Assembly: GCA_045810225.1 (NCBI GenBank)
Contig: JBJMWI010000028.1
Span: 18,947-82,946, forward strand
DNA: 64,000 nt
Source: Burkholderiales bacterium
Lineage (GTDB): Bacteria > Pseudomonadota > Gammaproteobacteria > Burkholderiales > JACQAP01
Direction: 5' to 3'
Shown piece after piece: positions 2,612 to 15,197 of the stretch; within the stretch, counting starts at the first letter, position 1, and each line of letters starts with the position of its first letter. The notes under the pieces are model-generated. The model had not been told where the DNA came from. It searched no databases and worked only from the letters and a program-made list of their open reading frames with translations. The translations under genes were made by a program, and so were the position numbers.

Positions 2612-4579
2612 TCAGGCCTGCTTGATCTTGCGCTGTTGAGCTTGTTCCGAGACTGCCGCGGGAAACGGCGTCGGGTGAGCGAACAGAAATCCCTGGCCAT
2701 ACTGGACGCCCATTTCGATCAGGATGGCCATGACAGCCTGATCCTCAACCCATTCCGCAATCACCTGTTTTTTCAGGCCGCGCGCCACATCGCAAAGCGC
2801 ACGCACGAACAGCCGGCTGGCACCATCTGCAGCAAGTTCGCGCACGAAGCTGCCATCGATCTTGAGATAGTCCACTTCGAAACGCTTGAGGAAATAAAAA
2901 GAACTGAACCCTGCGCCGAAATCGTCCAATGCAAAACGGCAGTTCAGGTGTTTCATCTGCGCGATGAATTCCTGTGTTACATCGACACTCGACATTGCTG
3001 CCGTTTCGGTGATCTCGAATACCAGCTGCGAGTGATCTATCGGCGCGGCAGCCAGCATGTTGTGGAAACGTCGCACCCAATGCGGATCGGAAATGCTGGT
3101 GCGCGACAAATTTACAAAATAGCGCGTCTTTTGGCCGCGATACCCCTTCAAGACTTCGATTACTTTGCTAACCACGCGCAAGTCAAGCTCCTGCGCCATT
3201 CCCAGCGACTCCGCAACCTCCAAAAATTCTCCGGGCGGCACTATGCCACCGCTGCGGTCAACTACCCGCATCAGGATTTCATGGTGGATTATTGCTTGAT
3301 CCGCAAGCCGGATCACAGGCTGGGAATAAAGCACGACCCGATTCTCGTCCAGAATCTCTCGTAATTCCCGTGCCCAGTGCACGCGCTTGTGTGTGCTGCG
3401 CAAGTCGTCCGGCTTCTGGTCGTGGAGCCGGACACGGTTGCGGCCGTCGTCCTTCGCCTGATACATCGCGATGTCGACGTTTGCAAGCAGTGCGGCTACG
3501 TCAGAGCCATGGAAAGGGTAGGTCGCTACGCCGACCGAACCGGTAAGCGTCGACAGACAACCCTGCCCCGGGACCGGAAATTTGTAGCGGCGCAATGCCG
3601 AGAGCATGCGCTCACCTACTTTGGCCGCCTCACTGCGTAACGCGTTCGGCAGGTGCATCGCAAACTCATCTCCGCCCAGCCGGAATACCTGGACGCCTTC
3701 GTCTTTGACCAGGTCCTTCAACAGCCCGCCGATAGCGATCAACAATTGATCACCGGTGCGATGGCCAAAATTGTCATTGATATATTTAAAATGGTCGACA
3801 TCGAGCAATGCGACCGAGCCTTTTTCGCCTTCCGCCAAGGCGAATTCCAGGGCTTTTTGCAGCGACACGCGGTTGGGCAGTCCGGTCAGCGCATCATGCG
3901 TGGCCAGGCGCTCAATTTCCAGCGCTGCCCGATGCTGTTCGGTGACATTGCGCGCGGTACCACGCAATCCAACGATTCGGCCCTCGTCGTCATGCGTCAC
4001 GCGGGCGTTGATGCCGACCCAGCGGTCCGAGCCGTCAGTGGAAATCAGGTGTGTGAGGTAGTTCTTGACCTCGCCGCTTCTGCGCAGCGCCGAAAGAAAC
4101 CGACGATTCGATACGTGCTGGGGCCGCGCTTCATAGTCAAAAAAACAGCCACCGAGCAGGTCCTTGGGTCGCAGACCGAACAAATCGACGCAGGCATTGT
4201 TCAGGTACGTGAAGCGGCCCAGCGCATCTGTGGTCCAAATCAGGTCGTGGGAGGTCTCTACCAGATCGCGGTAGCGGGATTCGCTCTCCAGCAACAACTG
4301 GATGATGCGCCGCTTTTCCTTCAAAGTTCGACGCGCAGCGGCCAGTTGATCTTCCATCCGCCCCGTTTCCGGCTTGGCAGAATCGGATTTATCGTTTGCC
4401 GTTACGCTAGTGGAACCGGCCAGTCCATCGATAATTTCGCGCGCATAACGCCGATGGCCGCCATCTGTCCTGCGTGCGACCAACACCCCCTGCGCATCCC
4501 ATCGCCGCAGTTTTTGCAACGGGATGCCGAGGCGCGCAGCCGCTTCCTGAATCGTGTACTCGGAAAGATCCTGCGCCAT
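2612..4579 (-). CDS. HTH (MerR/excisionase-type)-PAS-GGDEF-EAL c-di-GMP turnover protein, RpfR-like core
   Basis: N-terminus YTIQEAAARLGIPLQKLRRWDAQGVLVARRTDGGHRRY is a MerR/HTH_17-type helix-turn-helix. A PAS region follows (LIWTTDALGRFTYLNNA...). GGDEF motif is intact (RLGGDEFAM). EAL domain carries EILMR, EITE, DDFGAGFSS, EWVE and QGFLF motifs. The gene lies 57 bp downstream of the RpfF-like gene on the same strand. Confidence 0.85.
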   Translation of the reverse strand: MAQDLSEYTIQEAAARLGIPLQKLRRWDAQGVLVARRTDGGHRRYAREIIDGLAGSTSVTANDKSDSAKPETGRMEDQLAAARRTLKEKRRIIQLLLESESRYRDLVETSHDLIWTTDALGRFTYLNNACVDLFGLRPKDLLGGCFFDYEARPQHVSNRRFLSALRRSGEVKNYLTHLISTDGSDRWVGINARVTHDDEGRIVGLRGTARNVTEQHRAALEIERLATHDALTGLPNRVSLQKALEFALAEGEKGSVALLDVDHFKYINDNFGHRTGDQLLIAIGGLLKDLVKDEGVQVFRLGGDEFAMHLPNALRSEAAKVGERMLSALRRYKFPVPGQGCLSTLTGSVGVATYPFHGSDVAALLANVDIAMYQAKDDGRNRVRLHDQKPDDLRSTHKRVHWARELREILDENRVVLYSQPVIRLADQAIIHHEILMRVVDRSGGIVPPGEFLEVAESLGMAQELDLRVVSKVIEVLKGYRGQKTRYFVNLSRTSISDPHWVRRFHNMLAAAPIDHSQLVFEITETAAMSSVDVTQEFIAQMKHLNCRFALDDFGAGFSSFYFLKRFEVDYLKIDGSFVRELAADGASRLFVRALCDVARGLKKQVIAEWVEDQAVMAILIEMGVQYGQGFLFAHPTPFPAAVSEQAQQRKIKQA

Positions 4580-4636: not shown

Positions 4637-5593
4637 TCAGTGTAACTGTCGTGCCATGACAATGTCGTGCTGATGCTCGCTCAGCCGTAAGTCGTTCTGG
4701 CGGGACACCAAACGTTGCATGAGCTTGAGATCACGGCTCGTTAAACTCAATGCCGTATCGACCCAAACCTCAACTACAGCCAGCAGTTCCTCGTAGTCCA
4801 ACTTATGGACGCAACGCCTTGCGGCCGCGATACCTGCCAATGCGTTGCGATGGCGGCCGCGGGATTTAATCAAATTGACGACTTCCGCCTCGCCACAGCC
4901 CTGTTCCACAACCAGATCTATTACGCCCTGCGCCAGCATATCATCGGCACTGTACAGTTTGCCACTCGATATCAGTCGCTCGGCTGCCCGCTTGCCGACC
5001 TTGCGCTCCAGAAAAGAATACGCGCCCATGCCCGGAAACAGGTTGAACAGAATTTCCGGAAACCCAAAGCGGGCCTGGCGCTCGGCAACAATCAGGTCTG
5101 AAGAAAGGGCGGCTTCAAAGCCGCCCCCGAGACATTGGCCCTGCACCAGCGAAATGGTCGTAATGGGTAATCCATGCCCCTGATAATTCCGGTAGAGCAC
5201 GTTTACGCATGCTAGGCCATATTCCAGCAAGGCTTGGCGGTCCTGTGCATCAATCAGTCGCGCAAACAGGCACAGATCGCCCCCGAGATTGAATACGCCC
5301 GGGACTCTTGAGCCGAGTACTGCGTACTCTAATGGCAGGTTTTTACCCTTGTGCTGGAAAGTTCCGCCACTGTGGCTCACAAACTGGCAGTATCGGTCGA
5401 GATCCTGAAGCAGGCCGGGATTAAAGTTCGGTCGCGGTCCCGGGTTCCACCGAAGCCACATTGCGTGCTGCTCGGCGTCATAAAAGGCAGACAATTGCTC
5501 GGAGAAGAAATATTCGGTTTTGAGGGCTTCAGCGGAACCTGTGGAGCGGGACGGTGCGGGAAGCAATAGTTCCCGCGGGACATTCATGTCCAT
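4637..5593 (-). CDS. rpfF: DSF-family signal synthase-like crotonase (RpfF-like enoyl-CoA hydratase superfamily)
   Basis: Blocks VFNLGGDLCLF, LVQGQCLGGGFEAALSSDLIVAE, FGFPEILFNLFPGMGAYSFL and VEVWVDTALSL line up with my recollection of Xanthomonas RpfF (VFNLGGDLALF, ALGGGFEAALS, LPEVLFDLFPGMGAYSF, TEIWVDTAMQL). This includes both catalytic Glu positions. SD AGGAGA lies 6 nt upstream of the ATG at 5593. Confidence 0.75.
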   Translation of the reverse strand: MDMNVPRELLLPAPSRSTGSAEALKTEYFFSEQLSAFYDAEQHAMWLRWNPGPRPNFNPGLLQDLDRYCQFVSHSGGTFQHKGKNLPLEYAVLGSRVPGVFNLGGDLCLFARLIDAQDRQALLEYGLACVNVLYRNYQGHGLPITTISLVQGQCLGGGFEAALSSDLIVAERQARFGFPEILFNLFPGMGAYSFLERKVGKRAAERLISSGKLYSADDMLAQGVIDLVVEQGCGEAEVVNLIKSRGRHRNALAGIAAARRCVHKLDYEELLAVVEVWVDTALSLTSRDLKLMQRLVSRQNDLRLSEHQHDIVMARQLH

Positions 5594-5890
5594 TTTAGTT
5601 CTCCTGTTGTTGAGGCAGTGCAGATAACCGCCGCTTCTCGTTTCCCCCGGAAAGGCGGTAATCCAGTGTGGACTTTAGCCCCAAACGCATGTAAAAAGCA
5701 AATCTAACACTATGATAGGTTTAACTTTTTAGTAGTGTAGTCAATGTGTTGGATTAAGTACGGAGCGTAAGGCGACAAAAACAGCGTGAAATCCCCTGTT
5801 TATTCAGTGGGAAGCGTTTCACACAAATGATTCAACTATCAAAAGCAAACTCCGGATTACTAATTCAATAATTTAAAAATTGGAGTGCGA

Positions 5891-8092
5891 ATGTTGTCCT
5901 CGCTGCGCCTGTTGCTTCGCTGTCTTCTACGGGTTCGTGTATTGGGAGACCTGGAGCCGTTTTCCAATGCGGACCGGCTGCTCGTCGTCGCGAATCATCA
6001 TTCACGTCTGGACGCCGTGGTACTGGCGTTGTTCCTGCCCCGTGATCCGATTGTCATCGTGCCTCCCGATGAAGCAGGGTCGACGTTCAGGCGCTGGCTG
6101 CTGGCCAGAATCCGCCATGAGGTCCTGGATTTAAATCATCCGTTAAACATGAAGCGGGTGCTCCGCTTGCTGCGAAGCGGGATTCCGGTGATCCTTTTTC
6201 CGGAAGGGCGCGTGGTTGAAAACGGCGCTGTCATGAAGATCTACCCGGTACCGGCACTGATCGCGATGAAAAGTGGCGCAAGCGTGCTGCCTGTACACGT
6301 CGAAGGTGCTGGGCAATGGTTCAGTCGATCCGCTTCAACATCGCTGTTGGGACGTTGGTTGCCGCGAGTAACGCTGCGGATTTTCTCCGCGATCCGCATC
6401 GATGGCGGCGCGGCCGGCACTGCACGGCGCCGGCGTGCGTTTGCCACCCGCCGGCTTGCTGCAGTCATGCAAACAATGGCCGTTCAGTCGCATGCCTGCA
6501 AGCCACTCTTTGAATGTTTTATCGACGCGGCTTTTGCGCACGGCCGCGGCGCCATGATCATGGAAGATCAGGGCGACAAGTGGTACAGCTACGGAGATAT
6601 CCTGCGCATGAGTCTGGCACTGTCGCGCCTGTTGCGGCGCCATACCGCAGACCGCGAAAACATTGGGGTGCTATTGCCAAACGTGGTGAACGCCGTTGCG
6701 GTGGTAATGGCCTTGTCGGCGGCGAGGCGGGTGCCCGCGATATTTAATTATTCGGCCGGCCCACTGGCCGTTGAATGCGCGCGAGTGGCGGCGGGAATTC
6801 GTACCGTTATCACTTCACGCAAATTCATCGAGCAGGCGCATCTGCATTCCTTGCTGGACGCTTTGCCCGGATGCGCGATTATCTATGTAGAGGATTTGCG
6901 CGCCGAGCTCCGATTTACGGATAAAGTTTGGCTGACAGGTTTTGCCCTGCGCTTTCCTCGGCTCGCCATTACCAAACAATCGACGCTGGACCCGGCGGTT
7001 GTCTTATTTACGTCCGGTTCTGAGGATCGCCCCAAGGGCGTGGCGCTTTCGCATCATGCCGTAGTGGCCAATATCGCTCAGATGCGCGCAGTGTTCGATT
7101 TTTCGCCAAAGGATAAAGTTCTGAATCCGCTGCCGCTATACCACGCCTATAGCTTTACCGCGGGCGTCATGCTGCCACTCATGACGGGCACGCGGGTTAA
7201 TTTATTCATTTCGCCCCTGCGTTATCGCGCCATACCGGAAGTGGCGTATCGCCGCAATTGCACCATTTTGTTCGGGACCAGTACCTTCCTATCGTTTTAC
7301 GCCCGTTACGCCAATCCGATGGATTTCAGCCGCCTGCGGCATGTCATCTCAGGAGGTGAAAAACTTTCGCCCGAAGTTGCCAGACTGTGGATGGAAAAAT
7401 TTGGCGTTCGCATCATGGAAGGCTACGGCTCGACCGAGTGTGCGCCGGTGATTTGTCTCGCCACAACAGCGGCCTTCCGGCGGGGTACGGTTGGCGCTTT
7501 CCTGCCCGGCGTGGAATATCAGATCGAAGCCATGGACGGAGTCGACAAGGGGGGCGTGCTCCATGTGCGGGGTCCGAATTTGATGCTCGGTTATTACCGC
7601 TACCAGAATCCCGGTGTTATTGAACCGCCGAAGTCTCCGCTCGGCGAAGGATGGTACGACACCGGCGATGTGGTGGAAATCGACCATGACGGACTGGTTA
7701 CTATTTCCGGACGCGTAAAACGCTTCGCGAAAATCGCCGGGGAGATGGTGTCCCTTGATATGATCGAGCACGTTGCGCGCGAAGCTTCTCCGGATTTTCA
7801 CCACGCAGCGGTCTTGAACGTGCAGGATTTTGGCGGCGAAACCACCGTGCTCTTTACCACTGATGACCGGCTTACCCGCGGACGACTGCTCGAAGCGGCG
7901 AAACAGCTGGGAACACACGACTTATCCGTGGCCCGCCGGCTGATTCAACTCAAAGAGTTGCCCCTGCTTGCGTCGGGGAAAATAGATTATGTCTCATTGA
8001 AGGCGTTGACTGAGGGGGACGATGTCAAACGTTTGCTTGCGCTGGCCATGGCTCAGCCGGTGGCAGACCACGAAACACCGCGCCCGTCGTGA
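5891..8092 (+). CDS. aas: Bifunctional lysophospholipid acyltransferase / acyl-ACP synthetase (Aas-type)
   Basis: N-terminal acyltransferase HX4D motif (VANHHSRLDAV) and PEGR block. C-terminal AMP-binding domain (FTSGSEDRPKGVALSH, GYGSTE, YDTGD). Same two-domain order and size as E. coli Aas. ATG at 5891 after GGAG; a GTG at 5885 is an alternative start. Confidence 0.8.
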   Translation: MLSSLRLLLRCLLRVRVLGDLEPFSNADRLLVVANHHSRLDAVVLALFLPRDPIVIVPPDEAGSTFRRWLLARIRHEVLDLNHPLNMKRVLRLLRSGIPVILFPEGRVVENGAVMKIYPVPALIAMKSGASVLPVHVEGAGQWFSRSASTSLLGRWLPRVTLRIFSAIRIDGGAAGTARRRRAFATRRLAAVMQTMAVQSHACKPLFECFIDAAFAHGRGAMIMEDQGDKWYSYGDILRMSLALSRLLRRHTADRENIGVLLPNVVNAVAVVMALSAARRVPAIFNYSAGPLAVECARVAAGIRTVITSRKFIEQAHLHSLLDALPGCAIIYVEDLRAELRFTDKVWLTGFALRFPRLAITKQSTLDPAVVLFTSGSEDRPKGVALSHHAVVANIAQMRAVFDFSPKDKVLNPLPLYHAYSFTAGVMLPLMTGTRVNLFISPLRYRAIPEVAYRRNCTILFGTSTFLSFYARYANPMDFSRLRHVISGGEKLSPEVARLWMEKFGVRIMEGYGSTECAPVICLATTAAFRRGTVGAFLPGVEYQIEAMDGVDKGGVLHVRGPNLMLGYYRYQNPGVIEPPKSPLGEGWYDTGDVVEIDHDGLVTISGRVKRFAKIAGEMVSLDMIEHVAREASPDFHHAAVLNVQDFGGETTVLFTTDDRLTRGRLLEAAKQLGTHDLSVARRLIQLKELPLLASGKIDYVSLKALTEGDDVKRLLALAMAQPVADHETPRPS

Positions 8093-8118: not shown

Positions 8119-9219
8119 CTATTTTTGGTAGCTGATGCGGTACACGGCATTCGCAGTATCGTCTGAAACCAGCAATGCGCCATCGGGCATGACCAGTACA
8201 TCGACCGGGCGGCCCCACGCACGCTCGTTTTCCATCCAGCCGCCTGCGAATTCTTCGTACTTCTCTACGGTTTTGCCATCCCGGTTCAGAGTAACCATCA
8301 TCACCCGATAGCCGCTTTTCTTGCTGCGATTCCAGGAACCGTGCTGCGCAATGAAAATACGGTTGGAATATTCCGGGGGAAACATTGTTCCGGTATAGAA
8401 ACGCAATCCGTTGGGCGCCACATGGCCTCCCTGCTTCAGGGCCGGAGGCTGGAATTCGCTGCACTTGCGCTTGGCGCCGTATTCCGGGTCAGGCGTATCG
8501 CCTTGGTGGCAGTACGGAAAGCCGAAATGCAGGCCTGGCGTGGGCGCGTGGTTGAGTTCGCACGATGGCATGTCGTCGCCCATCATGTCGCGGCCATGTT
8601 CGTTGAACCACATTTCGCGCGTGCGCGGATCCCAATCGAAACCTACGGTGTTACGGATGCCGCGGGCAAAGACCTGAAACTGAGTTCCGTCCGGCTTCAT
8701 GCGGTGTATCGCGGCGTACACGTCCGGGTTTGGTTCACAGATATTGCAAGGTGCGCCGACCGGTACGTAAAGCCAGCCATCAGGTCCGAACGCGATAAAT
8801 TTCCAGCCGTGGTGAGTTTCGCGCGGAAGTTTGTCGAATACCACCACCGGTGCGGGCGGCTTCGCGAGATTGGCTTCGATATTGTCAAAGCGCAGGATCC
8901 GGTTGATTTCCGCGACGTAAAGGGCGCCTTCGCGGAACGCTACGCCGTTGGGCGCGTTTAAGCCCTGCGCGACGGTGATTACTTGGTCTACTTTGCCATC
9001 GCGGTTGGAATCGACCAATGCGTAAACCGTATCGGTGCGGGTGCCAACAAAAACGGTTCCCTTGTCACCAAGCGCCAGCGAACGGGCATTCTCGACCTCG
9101 GCGTACAAGTCAGCCTTGAATCCAGCCGGCAGCCTGATGCGATCGACCGGCGGGGCCGCCCCCGCAGTGCCGGCAAACACTGTCAAAACCAAGAACCAGT
9201 TGGCGAGGCGCGAACCCAT
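8119..9219 (-). CDS. PQQ-dependent sugar dehydrogenase (sorbosone/glucose dehydrogenase GSDH family), secreted
   Basis: ATG at 9219 with SD GGAGAA gives signal peptide MGSRLANWFLVLTVFAGTAGAAP. Beta-propeller style repeats and HGRDMMGDD, HFGFPYCH and HVAPNG blocks are typical of the soluble GSDH family. The ORF extension to 9432 is read-through. Confidence 0.75.
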   Translation of the reverse strand: MGSRLANWFLVLTVFAGTAGAAPPVDRIRLPAGFKADLYAEVENARSLALGDKGTVFVGTRTDTVYALVDSNRDGKVDQVITVAQGLNAPNGVAFREGALYVAEINRILRFDNIEANLAKPPAPVVVFDKLPRETHHGWKFIAFGPDGWLYVPVGAPCNICEPNPDVYAAIHRMKPDGTQFQVFARGIRNTVGFDWDPRTREMWFNEHGRDMMGDDMPSCELNHAPTPGLHFGFPYCHQGDTPDPEYGAKRKCSEFQPPALKQGGHVAPNGLRFYTGTMFPPEYSNRIFIAQHGSWNRSKKSGYRVMMVTLNRDGKTVEKYEEFAGGWMENERAWGRPVDVLVMPDGALLVSDDTANAVYRISYQK

Positions 9220-9293
9220 GGGTTTTTCTCCTTCAAACTGCATTGAGCTTGGCAAGGAGACAGCGTATCCCGCAACGGGGTTCCGGCCGGCAC

Positions 9294-9322
9294 CTTGAAC
9301 GCATAAGATAGCGCCCCTATCT
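9294..9322 (+). promoter_or_regulatory. Candidate sigma32 (RpoH) heat-shock promoter of htpG
   Basis: CTTGAAC (9294-9300), a 13-nt spacer, then CCCCTATCT (9314-9322). This fits the proteobacterial sigma32 consensus CTTGAAA-N13-14-CCCCATNT. It sits about 36 nt upstream of the htpG ATG, with SD AGGAGA at 9345-9350. Confidence 0.55.
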
Positions 9323-9357
9323 GGCCATATTGTTACAAGTCCACAGGAGAGCAAGTT

Positions 9358-11265
9358 ATGGGCGAAGCCGCCACTCGGGAGACGCTGGGCTTCCAGACCG
9401 AAGTCAAACAATTGCTGCAGTTGATGATTCACTCCTTGTACAGCAACAAGGAGATATTCCTGCGAGAACTGATTTCAAACGCATCGGATGCCTGCGACAA
9501 GCTGCGTTTCGAGGCGCTGACCGACCCCGGGCTGTTTGAAGATGACGCTGACCTGAAGATTCTTGTCTCGCTGGACCGTACTGCGCGGACCATCACTGTG
9601 ACTGACAACGGCATTGGCATGTCGCGTCAGGAAGTCATCGACAATATCGGCACCATTGCAAAATCCGGGACCCGGGAGTTTTTCGGGCGGCTCACGGGCG
9701 ACCAGGCCAAGGACGCCAGCCTGATCGGACAATTCGGCGTGGGATTCTATTCTTGTTTCATTGTCGCCGACAACGTTACGTTGACCACCCGTCGCGCCGG
9801 CCTCGGCAAAGAGCATGGCGTGCGCTGGGAATCCCGCGGCGAAGGTGATTACACCATCGAGATCGTCGAAAAAAATTCGCGCGGCACGGAGGTGACCCTG
9901 CACTTGCGTGAAGGTGAGGACGAATTGCTGGAAGGCTTTCGCCTGCAGTCGATCATCCGCAAGTATTCCGACCATATCTCCCTGCCGATCTTGATGAACA
10001 AGCAGGAATGGGACAAGGACAAGGGGGAACACGTTACCCGCGACGAGCTGGAGAAGGTCAATCAGGCTTCCGCCTTATGGGCACGGCCAAAGTCAGAGAT
10101 TACCGAAGAGCAGTACCGCGAGTTCTACAAACATGTGAGTCATGACTTTGAAGCGCCGCTTGCCTGGGTGCATGCAAAGGTAGAAGGAAAATCAGAATAC
10201 ACGCAGCTTCTCTACATACCCTCGCGCGCGCCGTTCGATCTGTGGGACCGAGAGCATCGTCATGGCATCAAGCTCTATGTGCGGCGCGTCTTTATCATGG
10301 ATGATGCCGAGCAACTCTTGCCTGCTTATTTGCGATTTGTACGCGGAGTAGTGGACTCCAACGATCTGCCGCTGAATGTCTCCCGTGAGATTTTGCAGGA
10401 ATCGAAAGATGTCGAAACCATCCGCAAAGGTTGCGTTAATAAGGTGCTGGGCCTGCTGGAGGACCTCACGCAGAACCAGAAGGAGAAATACACGGCTTTC
10501 TGGAAAGAATTCGGCCGTGTGCTGAAAGAGGGCGTGGGCGAGGATTGGTCGAACAAGGAGCGCATCGCCAAACTCCTGCGGTTTGCCTCAACGCATACCG
10601 ACAGCGAAGAGCAGAGCGTCAGCCTGTCGGATTACCTGGCTCGCATGAAGGAAGGGCAGGAGAAAATTTACTACATCACCGCTGACAGCTTTGCGGCCGC
10701 GAAGAACAGCCCGCACCTCGAAATTTTTCGCCAGAAAGGCATCGAAGTGTTGTTGCTGTCGGACCGTGTCGATGAATGGGTGGGATCGAATCTAACCGAA
10801 TTCGAGGGCAAACCGATGGCATCGGTTGCCAAAGGCGACCTTGATCTGGGCAAGCTGGCCGATGAGGACAAGAAAGAGCAGGAGAAGGAGGCTGGTGAGA
10901 ACAAGGAACTCGTCGAAAACATCGGGAAAAGCCTGGGTGATCGGGTGAAGCAGGTGCGCGTAACGCTAAGGCTTACATCATCGCCGGCCTGCCTGGTGGC
11001 CGACCAGCATGGGATGAGCGGCAATCTAGAGCGCATGCTGAAGGCGGCAGGCCAAACTGTGCCGGGCAGTAAACCTGTTCTGGAAATTAATCCACACCAT
11101 CCACTGGTACAACTGCTGAAAGGCGAAACGGACCAGGGACGTTTTGGCGACTGGAGCCACATCCTGTTCGATCAGGCCCTACTCGCCGAAGGTGGACAGC
11201 TCGACGATCCTGCGTCCTTTGTCAAACGCCTGAACGAAATGATGCTGACATTGGCTAAAAAGTGA
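9358..11265 (+). CDS. htpG: Molecular chaperone HtpG (Hsp90)
   Basis: 635 aa. N-terminal GHKL ATPase signature [39 protein letters not shown] and GQFGVGFYS, colinear with HtpG. Confidence 0.95.
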
Positions 11266-11283: not shown

Positions 11284-12093
11284 CTACTTGCCAGTCCAGC
11301 GCGGCGGGCGCTTCTGCATGAAGGCATCGATGCCTTCCCCGACGTCCTCTGCCATCATATTGCATGCCATGACCTCCGCTGCGTACTCGTAGGCGGCTTC
11401 CATGCCCATCTCCATCTGGGTATAGAACATTTTCTTGCCCGTGGTGACGGCCACTGTGGATTTAGCGATGATGGCGTCCGCAAGCGCCTTGACTTCAGCG
11501 TCAAGGTGCTCCGCCGGCACAACGCGATTCACAAGACCGCGCTGTTTAGCCGTCGCTGCGTCGATAAAATCGCCGGTAAGCAGCATTTCCATGGCTTCTT
11601 TGCGCGATACATTTCGGCCAAGTGCTACGCTGGGCGTGGAGCAAAACAGGCCGACATTGATTCCGGATACGGCAAATCGGGCCGTGTCGGAGGCGACGGC
11701 AAGATCGCATTGAGCAACCAACTGACAACCCGCCGCCGTTGCAATTCCGTGTACCCGGGCAATAACCGGTTGCGGCAGATGCACGATTTTCATCATGACA
11801 TCGCTGCATTGGGCGAACAGTTTGTCGTAATAGTGCTTGCTTGGATTGGCCCGCATTTGCTTTAAATCGTGGCCAGCGCAAAAAGCCGGCCCGGAGCCCG
11901 CAATTACCACCACCCGCACCGATGTGTCTTTGCCAACGGCGTCCAGCATTGACTGCAGGTCCGTCAGCAACTCTTCGCTGAGCGAGTTGTATTGCCTGGG
12001 GCGGTTCAGCGTGATGGTTGCGATACCGCTTGTGTCCTGGCGTAGCAGGATCGGCTCGACATGGACTTGTTGGGCAGCTGCGGTGGCAGGCAT
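11284..12093 (-). CDS. Enoyl-CoA hydratase/isomerase family protein
   Basis: Crotonase fold blocks VVVIAGSGPAFCAGHDL, ARVHGIATAAGCQLV and FAVSGINVGLFCSTP. Confidence 0.85.
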   Translation of the reverse strand: MPATAAAQQVHVEPILLRQDTSGIATITLNRPRQYNSLSEELLTDLQSMLDAVGKDTSVRVVVIAGSGPAFCAGHDLKQMRANPSKHYYDKLFAQCSDVMMKIVHLPQPVIARVHGIATAAGCQLVAQCDLAVASDTARFAVSGINVGLFCSTPSVALGRNVSRKEAMEMLLTGDFIDAATAKQRGLVNRVVPAEHLDAEVKALADAIIAKSTVAVTTGKKMFYTQMEMGMEAAYEYAAEVMACNMMAEDVGEGIDAFMQKRPPRWTGK

Positions 12094-12155
12094 GGCGCTC
12101 TCCGCTAAGTGATGCGATGGACGAAATTATAGTCGCTGGTTAGGCGCGTTCAAGG

Positions 12156-15100
12156 TCAAGCCTGTAAATGAAATGCAGGCGGAGGCGATGCCTGCCCGTC
12201 AAGAAACTGCTCGAATGCTTCGGCACCCAATGGCTTGCTGAACAGAAAGCCCTGGATTTCATCACAGCCGTAAGCATGCAGGAATTCAAGTTGCGGCACC
12301 GTCTCCACGCCTTCAGCGACTACTTCCAGATTCATGTTGTGCGCCATGGCGATGATGCTGCGCGTGATAGAAGCGTCATCGCGATCGTCAGGCAGATCGC
12401 GGATGAATGAACGGTCTATCTTCACGCAGTCAATCGGAAAGCGCTTCAGATAGGCGAGCGACGAATAACCGGTACCGAAATCGTCGATGGCAATGCGCAC
12501 GCCAGTATCGCGCAGAGCCTGCAGCACCTTGATTGCCCCCTCGGCATCGCGCATGACCATACTTTCAGTAATTTCCAACTCCAGATTTTCGGGTGGAAAA
12601 CCGGTTCTCTCAAGCGCGCCGCTGACGCGCATCGCCAAGCCATCGTCATACAGTTGCCGGACCGACAGATTTACCGCTACGCGCAATCCGGCGTGGCCGG
12701 CATCGCGTAAAGCCTGCCCGTGGCGGCAGGCCTCAGTCAGCACCCAGTCTCCAATCGGTACGATCATCCCTGTTTCTTCAGCGATGCCAATGAAAGCGCT
12801 CGGTTGCATGAGACCTTTCTCAGGATTTTGCCAGCGCACCAGAGCTTCCATTCCCGCCACGTTACGCGACGAGACCTGCATCTTCGGCTGAAACTGAAGC
12901 ATGAATTCGTGCCGTTCCAATGCGCGCCCCAGGGAAGATTCTATGGATAGCCGCTCCCGGCCGTGCGCATCCATGTCAGGCGAAAAATATTGAAACCCGT
13001 TCTTGCCGGATTCCTTGGCCCGATACATGGCGACGTCGCTGTTGCGCAGCAAGGTCTGCAAATCGGTGCCGTCATGCGGACTGGTACTGATGCCGATACT
13101 TGCCGTAATGACGAATTCCTGCTCGTCGATCGTCAGCGGACGCGACGTTGCCTCAAGGATCTTGTTTGCCACGGCGCTGACTGCTTCAACGCTGGCGGCG
13201 TCCTGCATCAGGATCACGAACTCATCTCCGCCAAGGCGCGCGAGGACATCGCTGTCGCGCAGGCAGGTGCGCAGACGAGCCGCAATCTGCTTCAGCAACT
13301 GGTCGCCCGCTTCGTGTCCAATGATGTCATTGATGTTCTTGAATCGGTCGAGGTCGACCACCATCAGGGCGGATTTCAGGCCCTGTCGCTGGTGGATCGT
13401 AATTGCCTGCTCGAACGCGCGCTGAAAATGTGCACGATTGGGAATGCCGGTCAGCTCATCGTGATAGGCGAGATACTCAATGTGTTCCTCGGCGCGCTTA
13501 CGGTCAGTAATGTCGCGGATGATCAAGCTGGCGCACAGCTTGCCCGAGCGGTCGCGAAACGTGGTGGAGGAAACGTCCACCGGCACCCAGCCGCCATCCT
13601 TGCGGCGCATCTTAAGTTCGCCACGGGCACCCCCTTCGCGCCGGTGTTCTTCCACCATGGCCTCCACGCGAGGATCGTCCGGCTCGGTGAGGCCTTCCCG
13701 ACCGAGCTTGCGCAATTCACTTTCGGAATACCCTAGCAACCGGCACGCCTGTTCGTTGGCCGACAATATCCTGCCGTCCGAGCGCATCAGCAGTACTGCG
13801 TCAATACTGTGCTCGAACAGTGCCTGGTAGCGCGCTTCGCTCTCGCGCAGCGTGTCCACCAGTGCGCGCTGCTCGGTAATGTCTTCATTGACTGCTACGC
13901 CACCAACGATCTCGCCTTCAGCAGAGACGATCGGCGCGGTCGAATGCAGTACAGTCTTGCGGGTGCCATCGGAACATTCAACATCCAGCACTTCGTTGCG
14001 CGATGACTCGCCTCTGGTCAACGTGAGCGCCATTCCGCGATCGGCAGTTTGCGGCAATTCTTTTTTCCGGTCGGTGAAATAATGCAAATCTTTTTCGGCA
14101 TCGCCCCAGATCCGGGCGCTGGCAGCATTGCTGAGAACGACATGTCCCTGCTTGTCCGCCACCCGAACGCCGACCGGCAAAGTCTCGAACACTTGCCGCA
14201 GCATGCGCTCGTTGCGTCCCACCGAACGCGCCAACTCGTTGCGGCGGATTAATCCTTGCATGAGTAACCACGCCAGCAAGACAGTCGCGAGGGTAAAAGC
14301 AGCCAGTATCGCCACCACCACATTGACTTCATGCCGCCAGCCCGCCAGCACTTCATCCAGGCTCAGACCGACTTGTGCTGTCAAAGATGTGCCGGCTATC
14401 GGGCGCGCGCTGTAAATCCGGGGCACGCCGTCGATCTCGCTGACCTTGTGATAAGTACCACTAGCCAACGTCGTATTGGACCCGGTCGGAACGCCTAACC
14501 ATTTCGGAGCCTCGGGTGCGCGCGCGATCAACTCTCCGCGCTCGTGCATCAGGGCGCTGGCGCCCGCTCGTCCTACGTCGATGTTGTCAACTAGCGGTTT
14601 GAATGCGGCTGGCTCCAACGCGACCGCAACCACCCCGGCGAACTGGCCTTGCGTATCTTCGAGGCGTCGGGCGGCGACGACAAACCATCCGGCGTTACGT
14701 TGGTCTGTCGCCGGCTTACCGATATAGAGCCGACTGCCCGCGTGCGAACGATGCCAGCGGAAATAGTCGCGATCTGACAAATCAATGGGCGCTGCGGGAC
14801 GAATATTGGAGTCCTGAAGCAGCACGCCGCGCGCGTTGAGAACGAACAAGGTGCGAGCGTTGCGCAGTTGTGCGGCTTGTTCTGCAAGCAAAGCATGCAA
14901 AGCAGCCCCCGAGGGATCGCGAAGCACTGGCATTCGCTGCCAGGACACCGCGGTGTTGTTTAGCGTCTGGTCTACCGACTGCAACAGCCGCTCCGTGCGC
15001 TCGTCAACGATCTGGGCAAGGTACGCGCTGGTCCGTTCTCCATCGCGTATGGCCGCCTCACGCGATTTGCTTAGCATCAAAAATGCCAGCGCGAAAAGGG

Positions 15101-15197
15101 TGATGACCAGCAGAACGGCGAGTCCTGGGACAAGATAAAGCAGAAAACGCTCTCGCGGTTGCGGGCGCTCGTAGGACGAAAGGGGCTGAGGCGTCAC
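12156..15197 (-). CDS. Membrane sensor with periplasmic Cache-like domain, two PAS domains, GGDEF and EAL
   Basis: 1013 aa. An N-terminal TM segment, a periplasmic region of about 270 aa and a second TM segment come first. Two PAS regions follow, then GGDEF (RLGGDEFVIL). EAL domain has EALVRW, ELEITES, DDFGTGYSS, EGVE and QGFLF. Confidence 0.85.
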   Translation of the reverse strand: MTPQPLSSYERPQPRERFLLYLVPGLAVLLVITLFALAFLMLSKSREAAIRDGERTSAYLAQIVDERTERLLQSVDQTLNNTAVSWQRMPVLRDPSGAALHALLAEQAAQLRNARTLFVLNARGVLLQDSNIRPAAPIDLSDRDYFRWHRSHAGSRLYIGKPATDQRNAGWFVVAARRLEDTQGQFAGVVAVALEPAAFKPLVDNIDVGRAGASALMHERGELIARAPEAPKWLGVPTGSNTTLASGTYHKVSEIDGVPRIYSARPIAGTSLTAQVGLSLDEVLAGWRHEVNVVVAILAAFTLATVLLAWLLMQGLIRRNELARSVGRNERMLRQVFETLPVGVRVADKQGHVVLSNAASARIWGDAEKDLHYFTDRKKELPQTADRGMALTLTRGESSRNEVLDVECSDGTRKTVLHSTAPIVSAEGEIVGGVAVNEDITEQRALVDTLRESEARYQALFEHSIDAVLLMRSDGRILSANEQACRLLGYSESELRKLGREGLTEPDDPRVEAMVEEHRREGGARGELKMRRKDGGWVPVDVSSTTFRDRSGKLCASLIIRDITDRKRAEEHIEYLAYHDELTGIPNRAHFQRAFEQAITIHQRQGLKSALMVVDLDRFKNINDIIGHEAGDQLLKQIAARLRTCLRDSDVLARLGGDEFVILMQDAASVEAVSAVANKILEATSRPLTIDEQEFVITASIGISTSPHDGTDLQTLLRNSDVAMYRAKESGKNGFQYFSPDMDAHGRERLSIESSLGRALERHEFMLQFQPKMQVSSRNVAGMEALVRWQNPEKGLMQPSAFIGIAEETGMIVPIGDWVLTEACRHGQALRDAGHAGLRVAVNLSVRQLYDDGLAMRVSGALERTGFPPENLELEITESMVMRDAEGAIKVLQALRDTGVRIAIDDFGTGYSSLAYLKRFPIDCVKIDRSFIRDLPDDRDDASITRSIIAMAHNMNLEVVAEGVETVPQLEFLHAYGCDEIQGFLFSKPLGAEAFEQFLDGQASPPPAFHLQA

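Follow-up and report, generated by a model that had tools for sequence, protein, structure and literature searches.

The 64,000-nt stretch of DNA analysed here (the window) comes from a Burkholderiales bacterium (GenBank assembly GCA_045810225.1, contig JBJMWI010000028.1) and carries an unusual arrangement around a diffusible signal factor (DSF) synthase-family gene. This rpfF-like gene is followed on the same strand, after 57 bp, by a gene for a protein with helix-turn-helix (HTH), PAS, GGDEF and EAL domains, and is faced across a divergent spacer by an aas-like gene, whose product combines an acyltransferase with a ligase of the acyl-acyl carrier protein (acyl-ACP) synthetase type (Table 1). 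The host is known from a 3.9-Mb draft genome in 205 contigs with a completeness of 94.7%, which holds one Aas-like and one RpfF-like gene. The rpfF product scores 343 bits with the NCBIfam model PRK08788, over the cut-off of 177, and 211 bits with the Xanthomonas-type RpfF equivalog NF053515, under the cut-off of 550. Its closest relatives of solved structure are Xanthomonas (Xcc) RpfF (3m6m, 177 bits), Cronobacter RpfF (6dgn, 176 bits) and BCAM0581 (5fus, 174 bits); the next-best solved crotonase reaches only 54 bits. Both catalytic glutamate contexts, GGGFE and FPE, are present and align with the RpfF structures. We refer to this RpfF subtype as clade A.

The HTH-PAS-GGDEF-EAL gene adjoins rpfF in clade-A loci with its N-terminal HTH included, and the sequence of this domain is strongly conserved (EYxIQE..LGIPxQKLRRWDxQGVLVAxRTxGGHRRY). 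We regard the protein as the candidate third member of the module, an RpfR-like receptor. A ligase gene of the FadD/RpfB type was not found beside the window rpfF, and two FadD-like genes lie in tandem on contig C5 of the same genome. As an earlier note on this DNA had held, the partner of the DSF synthase is thus of the Aas type and not an RpfB.

The aas-like open reading frame (ORF; 5885/5891-8092) yields 733 residues from its ATG, with an alternative GTG start two codons upstream. The earlier note had described a two-domain Aas architecture at this place, and PF01553 and PF00501 both match the protein, which contains NHHSRLD as well as TSGSEDRPKG. On the acyltransferase side the HX4D motif (NHHSRLD, residues 35-41) and FPEGR (residues 103-107) are intact. 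The ligase motifs comprise TSGSEDRPKG at residues 374-383 and GYGSTE, followed downstream of the AMP-binding core by YDTGD, GRVKRFAKIAGEMVS and SGK, which extend to residue 700. The protein therefore holds every Aas motif: HX4D, FPEGR, TSGSExxPKG, GYGxTE, TGD, GRxKRFAKIAGEMVS and GK. Its best NCBIfam model is that of Aas itself (NF005959; 740.2 bits, E 2e-222, model positions 4-715 of 719), with a score below the equivalog cut-off of 886 bits, and the FadD model NF006523, whose cut-off is 884, scores the protein at 119.6 bits and matches the C-terminal part only. The window gene encodes a genuine Aas-family enzyme in which both halves are probably active.

The genome groups used to follow the pair are samples, and 'not found' below holds for the genomes searched. 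Within the genus, RpfF is present in 33 of 36 congeners; in 31 of the 33, one contig holds aas next to rpfF in divergent orientation, and contig ends separate the two genes in the other two. At the level of the order we sampled 301 genomes that are at least 90% complete. Clade-A RpfF, 58-100% identical to the window protein, occurs in 43 of them, from 12 families, and RpfF of other subtypes, 38-48% identical, in 38 genomes. An adjacent divergent Aas-type gene accompanies clade A in 37/43 genomes and 11 families; beside the other RpfF subtypes it was found in 0/38. Three of the genomes used are unpublished: G062, which alone represents family f27 and counts among the 37 adjacent cases; G032, one of the genus cases that have a second Aas; and G591, from the class-level sample, which has an RpfF relative but lacks an Aas. 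Without them the count is 36/42 genomes in ten families, and the conclusions stay as they are.

A set of named loci was examined in addition. It comprises 41 clade-A loci from metagenome-assembled genomes that bear Betaproteobacteria or Burkholderiales labels, among them SG8_40, RIFCSPLOWO2_02_FULL_67_26 and Pelomicrobium. The Aas gene is present at all 38 that contain enough upstream DNA, and the co-directional HTH-PAS-GGDEF-EAL gene at every one that reaches far enough downstream of rpfF (37 of the 41). The other RpfF type, clade B, had no Aas within 8 kb in any of 38 named loci (from Methylophaga, Zetaproteobacteria, Leptospirillum, Hyphomicrobiales and others). Among 400 further genomes sampled from the class, 65 contain an RpfF relative, in each case at most 50% identical, and 21 of the 65 also have an Aas. 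Judged by this distribution, the pairing is old and stable and has a single origin. The lineages that carry it are uncultured betaproteobacteria of soil, sediment and groundwater. Conservation beyond this genome had been set beforehand as a test of the proposed link; the divergent pair is found in at least 11 families.

To place the rpfF-linked copies among Aas proteins, we combined 44 of them with 24 unlinked copies of the same order and with E. coli Aas, and computed a tree of the 69 sequences by a quick search under LG+G4. In the free tree 42 of the 44 linked sequences form one clade (SH-aLRT 91, inner node 97), which includes the window Aas, and E. coli Aas clusters separately with 19 unlinked sequences (SH-aLRT 90/98). 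Linked copies of family f2 sit on long branches. When all 44 linked sequences were constrained to one group, the likelihood rose above that of the free quick search (p-AU 0.73), so that their monophyly is not rejected. In genomes with two copies (G001, G025, G121 and G279), one Aas falls in each clade. Unlinked copies resemble E. coli Aas more closely (52-55% identity), and at several of them lplT is the adjoining gene, as it is in E. coli. The phylogeny assigns the window Aas to an old, distinct paralog lineage which accompanies a particular rpfF-rpfR signalling cassette.

The two halves of the linked proteins are unevenly conserved. Over 38 linked-clade sequences the ligase motifs are invariant or nearly so. 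FPEGR is altered to FPQGP, FPQDR or FPQER in 16 of the 38, and three linked sequences have a substitution of the HX4D histidine; the canonical clade retains both positions at 100%. Within the linked clade, the acyltransferase regions share a mean pairwise identity of 0.377 and the ligase regions one of 0.583 (canonical Aas, 0.605 and 0.618), and the acyltransferase half of the linked clade diverges 1.5 times as fast. Three linked genes, all still divergent from rpfF, have no acyltransferase domain and encode the ligase alone (594 aa in L029, 549 aa in L096 and 583 aa in L097). These comparisons indicate that the acyltransferase half of the linked clade is under relaxed or shifted constraint. 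Since the ligase is kept while the acyltransferase erodes, the function retained beside rpfF would be the activation of fatty acids. The linked clade would then display natural stages in a shift of Aas towards the stand-alone acyl-ACP synthetase form, with one half decaying and the other maintained.

The spacer between rpfF and aas is the AT-rich divergent region that the earlier note had put at about 290 bp; its GC content drops to 0.36-0.46, compared with about 0.55-0.60 in the flanks. Alignment across the genus revealed conserved blocks, including a dyad, which is a candidate operator and the spacer's only strongly conserved element. A best match to the dyad is present in 47/47 intergenic spacers, with at most 3 mismatches in 35 and with 4-8 in 12; the distance between its first base and the rpfF start is 72-147 nt. 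Scans of whole clade-A loci (3-17 kb, at most 3 mismatches) gave a single site in 37 of 42 and none in five (L029, L030, L031, L053 and L056). In some families both arms of the dyad change in parallel. The sole DNA-binding domain of the module is the HTH of the RpfR-like protein, and we infer that this MerR-like domain binds the dyad. Some altered dyads coincide with a change of Q to Y, H or W before KLRRW in the HTH, and others do not.

Between the dyad and the start codon of rpfF lies a GC-rich stem, found at the same place in most congeners with a variable loop sequence. An Rfam scan of the spacer returned a chance-level match only and no family, and the spacer contains no terminator of note. 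The best other copy of the dyad in the genome, with one mismatch, is on contig C65 (G000:C65:22764-22782; locus L140, 1501-1519), at a distance of about 45 nt upstream from a Haem_oxygenas_2/TenA-like gene and immediately downstream from a GGDEF-EAL gene. The same regulator may have a second target here, or the match may have arisen by chance. Further matches in the genome are a site within an SDR gene and a site that is not palindromic. A control pattern also gave 1 hit, and we therefore do not propose a dyad regulon.

Table 1. Features of the rpfF/aas locus and of related loci. Positions without a locus name refer to the window.
Feature	Position	Strand	Basis or remark
HTH (MerR-like)-PAS-GGDEF-EAL gene, RpfR-like receptor candidate	2612..4579	-	Pfam; conserved next to rpfF
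rpfF-like gene, DSF-synthase-family crotonase, 318 aa, subtype clade A	4637..5593	-	NCBIfam, solved relatives
AT-rich divergent intergenic region rpfF/aas, 297 bp	5594..5890	.	sequence, composition
Stem-loop in likely rpfF leader, 10-nt arms, 90% complementary	5623..5663	-	repeat search; genus alignment
Conserved 21-bp dyad AATCTAACA-N3-TGnTAGrTT, candidate operator	5701..5721	.	begins 107 nt upstream of rpfF ATG
aas-like gene, 733-aa acyltransferase + acyl-ACP synthetase-type ligase	5891..8092	+	ORF, Pfam, NCBIfam, phylogeny
PlsC-type acyltransferase domain, residues 23-139	5957..6307	+	PF01553, E 3.5e-13
AMP-binding (adenylate-forming ligase) core, residues 221-571	6551..7603	+	PF00501, E 1.4e-58
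Ligase-only linked genes	L096 4004-5653; L097 6339-8090; L029 about 5540-7130		still divergent from rpfF
FadL/TodX gene downstream of linked aas, family f2	L122 1075-2406; L123 600-1928	same orientation as aas	
Junctions left by loss of rpfR, rpfF and aas	L119 6130-6165 (G018); L120 8881-8993 (G008)		

The arrangement shares traits with four known systems. As in Xanthomonas, a gene for an adenylate-forming fatty-acid ligase stands beside the DSF synthase gene. Xanthomonas RpfB re-activates free fatty acids freed by the RpfF thioesterase (PMC4504480), and the same role is proposed here for the linked Aas. The two differ in that the window protein belongs to the Aas/acyl-ACP synthetase branch, has an extra acyltransferase domain and would use another acceptor; moreover, the window aas is divergent from rpfF, whereas Xanthomonas rpfB is co-directional with it (PMC4504480). 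With the E. coli system, in which Aas is a 2-acyl-GPE acyltransferase/acyl-ACP synthetase and LplT a lysophospholipid flippase, the window protein has in common its domain order, all catalytic motifs and a full-length model match, but it stays below the equivalog cut-off, falls in a separate clade and has no adjoining lplT. Stand-alone acyl-ACP synthetases, such as Vibrio harveyi AasS and Neisseria AasN, load free fatty acids on ACP for phospholipid synthesis of the PlsX/PlsY type. Their layout resembles that of the ligase-only linked genes (L029, L096 and L097), whereas the window protein retains its N-terminal acyltransferase. Chlamydia AasC (PMC5693948) likewise loads free fatty acids on ACP. 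The fourth system, that of Burkholderia and Cronobacter for the Burkholderia diffusible signal factor (BDSF), also joins an RpfF-family synthase to an adjacent PAS-GGDEF-EAL protein; there rpfF and rpfR are convergent and the RpfR N-terminus is a PAS-like FI domain (PMC6361424). In the window, by contrast, rpfF and the receptor gene are co-directional and 57 bp apart, and a MerR-like HTH takes the place of the FI domain; an Aas gene, too, is not reported at the known loci of that system.

In a full-text literature search we found no paper that reports an rpfF locus with an Aas gene, and acyl-ACP synthetase came up only as a reagent. What is new is a DSF cluster whose accessory fatty-acid ligase is of the Aas type. 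DSF-family signalling has mostly been studied in Xanthomonas, Burkholderia and enterics, where RpfB, a long-chain acyl-CoA ligase of the FadD type, is, to our knowledge, the one enzyme known to act on the free acids that RpfF releases.

RpfF dehydrates 3-hydroxyacyl-ACP and hydrolyses acyl-ACPs, so that the signal is released together with many by-product acids, and in Xanthomonas this thioesterase activity is counteracted by RpfB (PMC4504480). We favour, with a probability of roughly 0.55, a model in which the linked Aas is an analogue of RpfB that takes the ACP route and returns RpfF-released fatty acids to acyl-ACP. Clade-A RpfF would act on acyl-ACP, making the cis-2 signal and also setting free fatty acids loose from many acyl-ACPs by hydrolysis. 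These acids would be adenylated by the ligase half of the linked Aas and reloaded on ACP. The signal itself, or 3-hydroxy acids released too early, may be among them, and the resulting acyl-ACP would re-enter lipid synthesis. Such a route would suit a host that starts its phospholipids by PlsX/PlsY and in which PlsB was not detected. PlsY is present in the host genome above its cut-off, and PlsB was not found in it at a completeness of 94.7%. Organisms with PlsX/PlsY supply phospholipid synthesis from acyl-ACP and not from acyl-CoA, so a ligase that charges ACP would return free acids directly to lipid synthesis.

In family f2, the linked aas is followed after 39-46 bp, on the same strand, by a gene for a FadL/TodX outer-membrane fatty-acid channel (E 3e-81). 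Re-capture of the released acids, which the earlier note had offered as the functional link between the two genes, gains support from the conserved pair, the clade of its own, the kept ligase half, fadL in family f2, and PlsY without PlsB. The other half of that proposal, channelling of the acids into membrane lipid by way of the acyltransferase, loses ground, as the PlsC motifs are eroded in many linked copies and the domain is gone in three. The window Aas itself may also re-acylate lysophospholipids imported by the unlinked LplT: the host copy has an intact acyltransferase half and the genome no other Aas, which argues for an added role in lysophospholipid repair. The sole host LplT (588 bits; G000:C175:2632-3867, locus L116) is encoded beside alanine racemase and is not adjacent to aas; no Aas or acyltransferase gene was found near it at this locus. 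The longest ORF called for LplT (583 aa) probably begins too far upstream.

Several observations weigh against the ACP-route model and lead to a rival explanation, namely that the gene encodes an ordinary housekeeping Aas which re-acylates lysophospholipids together with LplT, is functionally unconnected with the signal synthase and stands beside rpfF only through inheritance of the ancestral arrangement at the nuo operon's end. Nearly all clade-A loci, in different families, share the gene order nuoN-NUDIX-rpfR-rpfF-aas. The adjacency could thus represent inherited gene order rather than selected linkage, and, with the wider block syntenic, inherited order accounts for part of the conservation of the pair. 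The pairing arose once: rpfF and aas are adjacent in 0/21 of the class-level genomes that have both, and no independent recurrence was found. The host genome contains no second Aas, its LplT is an orphan and both acyltransferase motifs are intact, and a purely housekeeping role for this only Aas retains an appreciable share of the probability. Family f51 (five genomes) keeps rpfR-rpfF and has lost aas alone, with htpG or the GSDH-like gene directly upstream instead. The dyad persists in this aas-less family; it therefore belongs to rpfF and does not track aas. A sigma-70 promoter scan of positions 5500-6000 found nothing and no promoter could be assigned; by eye, weak -35/-10 candidates are seen for rpfF beside the dyad only, and none for aas. 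The promoter region that the earlier note had taken to be shared by the two genes is accordingly in doubt, given that the conserved dyad keeps its distance to rpfF and outlives the loss of aas. Finally, families other than f2 carry genes for a metallophosphoesterase, cytochrome b561 or dodecin after aas.

Two broader ideas were tried and dropped. For an independent second origin of the pairing no case was seen in the class-level genomes (0/21) or the clade-B loci (0/38), and lipid genes downstream of aas are not a general rule, being represented only by fadL and only in family f2.

Other features of the locus are difficult to reconcile with a housekeeping Aas. The linked copies form a clade apart from canonical Aas, and it is the canonical copy that goes with lplT. 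Many linked copies combine an eroded or deleted acyltransferase with perfect ligase motifs, a state that should not be tolerable in a lysophospholipid acyltransferase. Gene content beyond aas varies, with the GSDH-like gene and htpG present in some loci only, yet aas stays. In the congeners G008 and G018, rpfR, rpfF and aas are missing together, so that the NUDIX gene abuts the GSDH-like gene and the trio was lost as a unit. The presence of fadL in the aas operon of family f2 points in the same direction. We consider the housekeeping explanation unlikely, although it is a competitor to be reckoned with. Linked-type Aas was not found in any sampled genome without clade-A RpfF; together with the loss of aas alone in family f51, this suggests that the linked Aas behaves as a dispensable accessory of the rpfR-rpfF cassette, and that the reverse does not hold.

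The ligase could alternatively serve precursor supply or proofreading, by loading exogenous or prematurely hydrolysed 3-hydroxy acids onto ACP and thereby raising signal output. Addition of acyl-ACP synthetase in vitro reverses the RpfF thioesterase and promotes BDSF synthesis (PMC4504480), the conserved part of the linked proteins is the ligase half, and FadL encoded beside aas in family f2 would permit the uptake of fatty acids from outside. However, the substrates of RpfF normally derive from fatty acid synthesis and need no loader, and family f51 retains the cassette without aas. We think this role quite improbable, while noting that sequences alone do not separate precursor supply from recapture. 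Sequestration of the signal, in which both domains would esterify the cis-2 acyl chain onto lysophospholipid and so store or quench it in membrane lipid or vesicles, agrees with the intact two-domain architecture in the host genus, but it is very hard to credit, since an acyltransferase half that is degenerate or missing in many linked copies is not the conserved function of the pairing. The domain-specific pattern of conservation thus argues against both the housekeeping and the sequestration explanation.

If the ACP-route model is extended to the whole module, the locus might encode a self-contained circuit of a synthase of a particular RpfF subtype, an HTH-PAS-GGDEF-EAL protein that acts as receptor and as transcription factor on the dyad, and a dedicated Aas that resets the system via ACP. 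This extension is speculative, and we would not expect it to hold in full. In such a circuit, Aas would ligate the released cis-2 acid and the by-product acids to ACP, for use by RpfF or by fatty acid synthesis, and FadL would re-import the signal in some lineages. Signal turnover would then proceed via ACP and not via CoA and beta-oxidation, a kind of circuit undescribed so far. The linked Aas points to a second, ACP-based solution to the handling of RpfF-released acids, genomically fixed beside a distinct RpfF subtype in many uncultured betaproteobacteria. RpfF and the linked Aas would also make a concrete, co-expressible enzyme pair with which the balance of signal yield, by-product acids and signal turnover can be addressed.

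In the window, the gene after aas is the convergent GSDH-like gene. The longest ORF calls for this gene (8119-9432, minus strand) and for htpG (9358-11265, plus strand) overlap head-to-head by 75 nt, and the true start of one or both probably lies further in. After htpG come genes for an ordinary enoyl-CoA hydratase and for a Cache-PAS-GGDEF-EAL protein (window positions 11284-15197, minus strand), and both recur next to the block in some congeners (L020 and L023).

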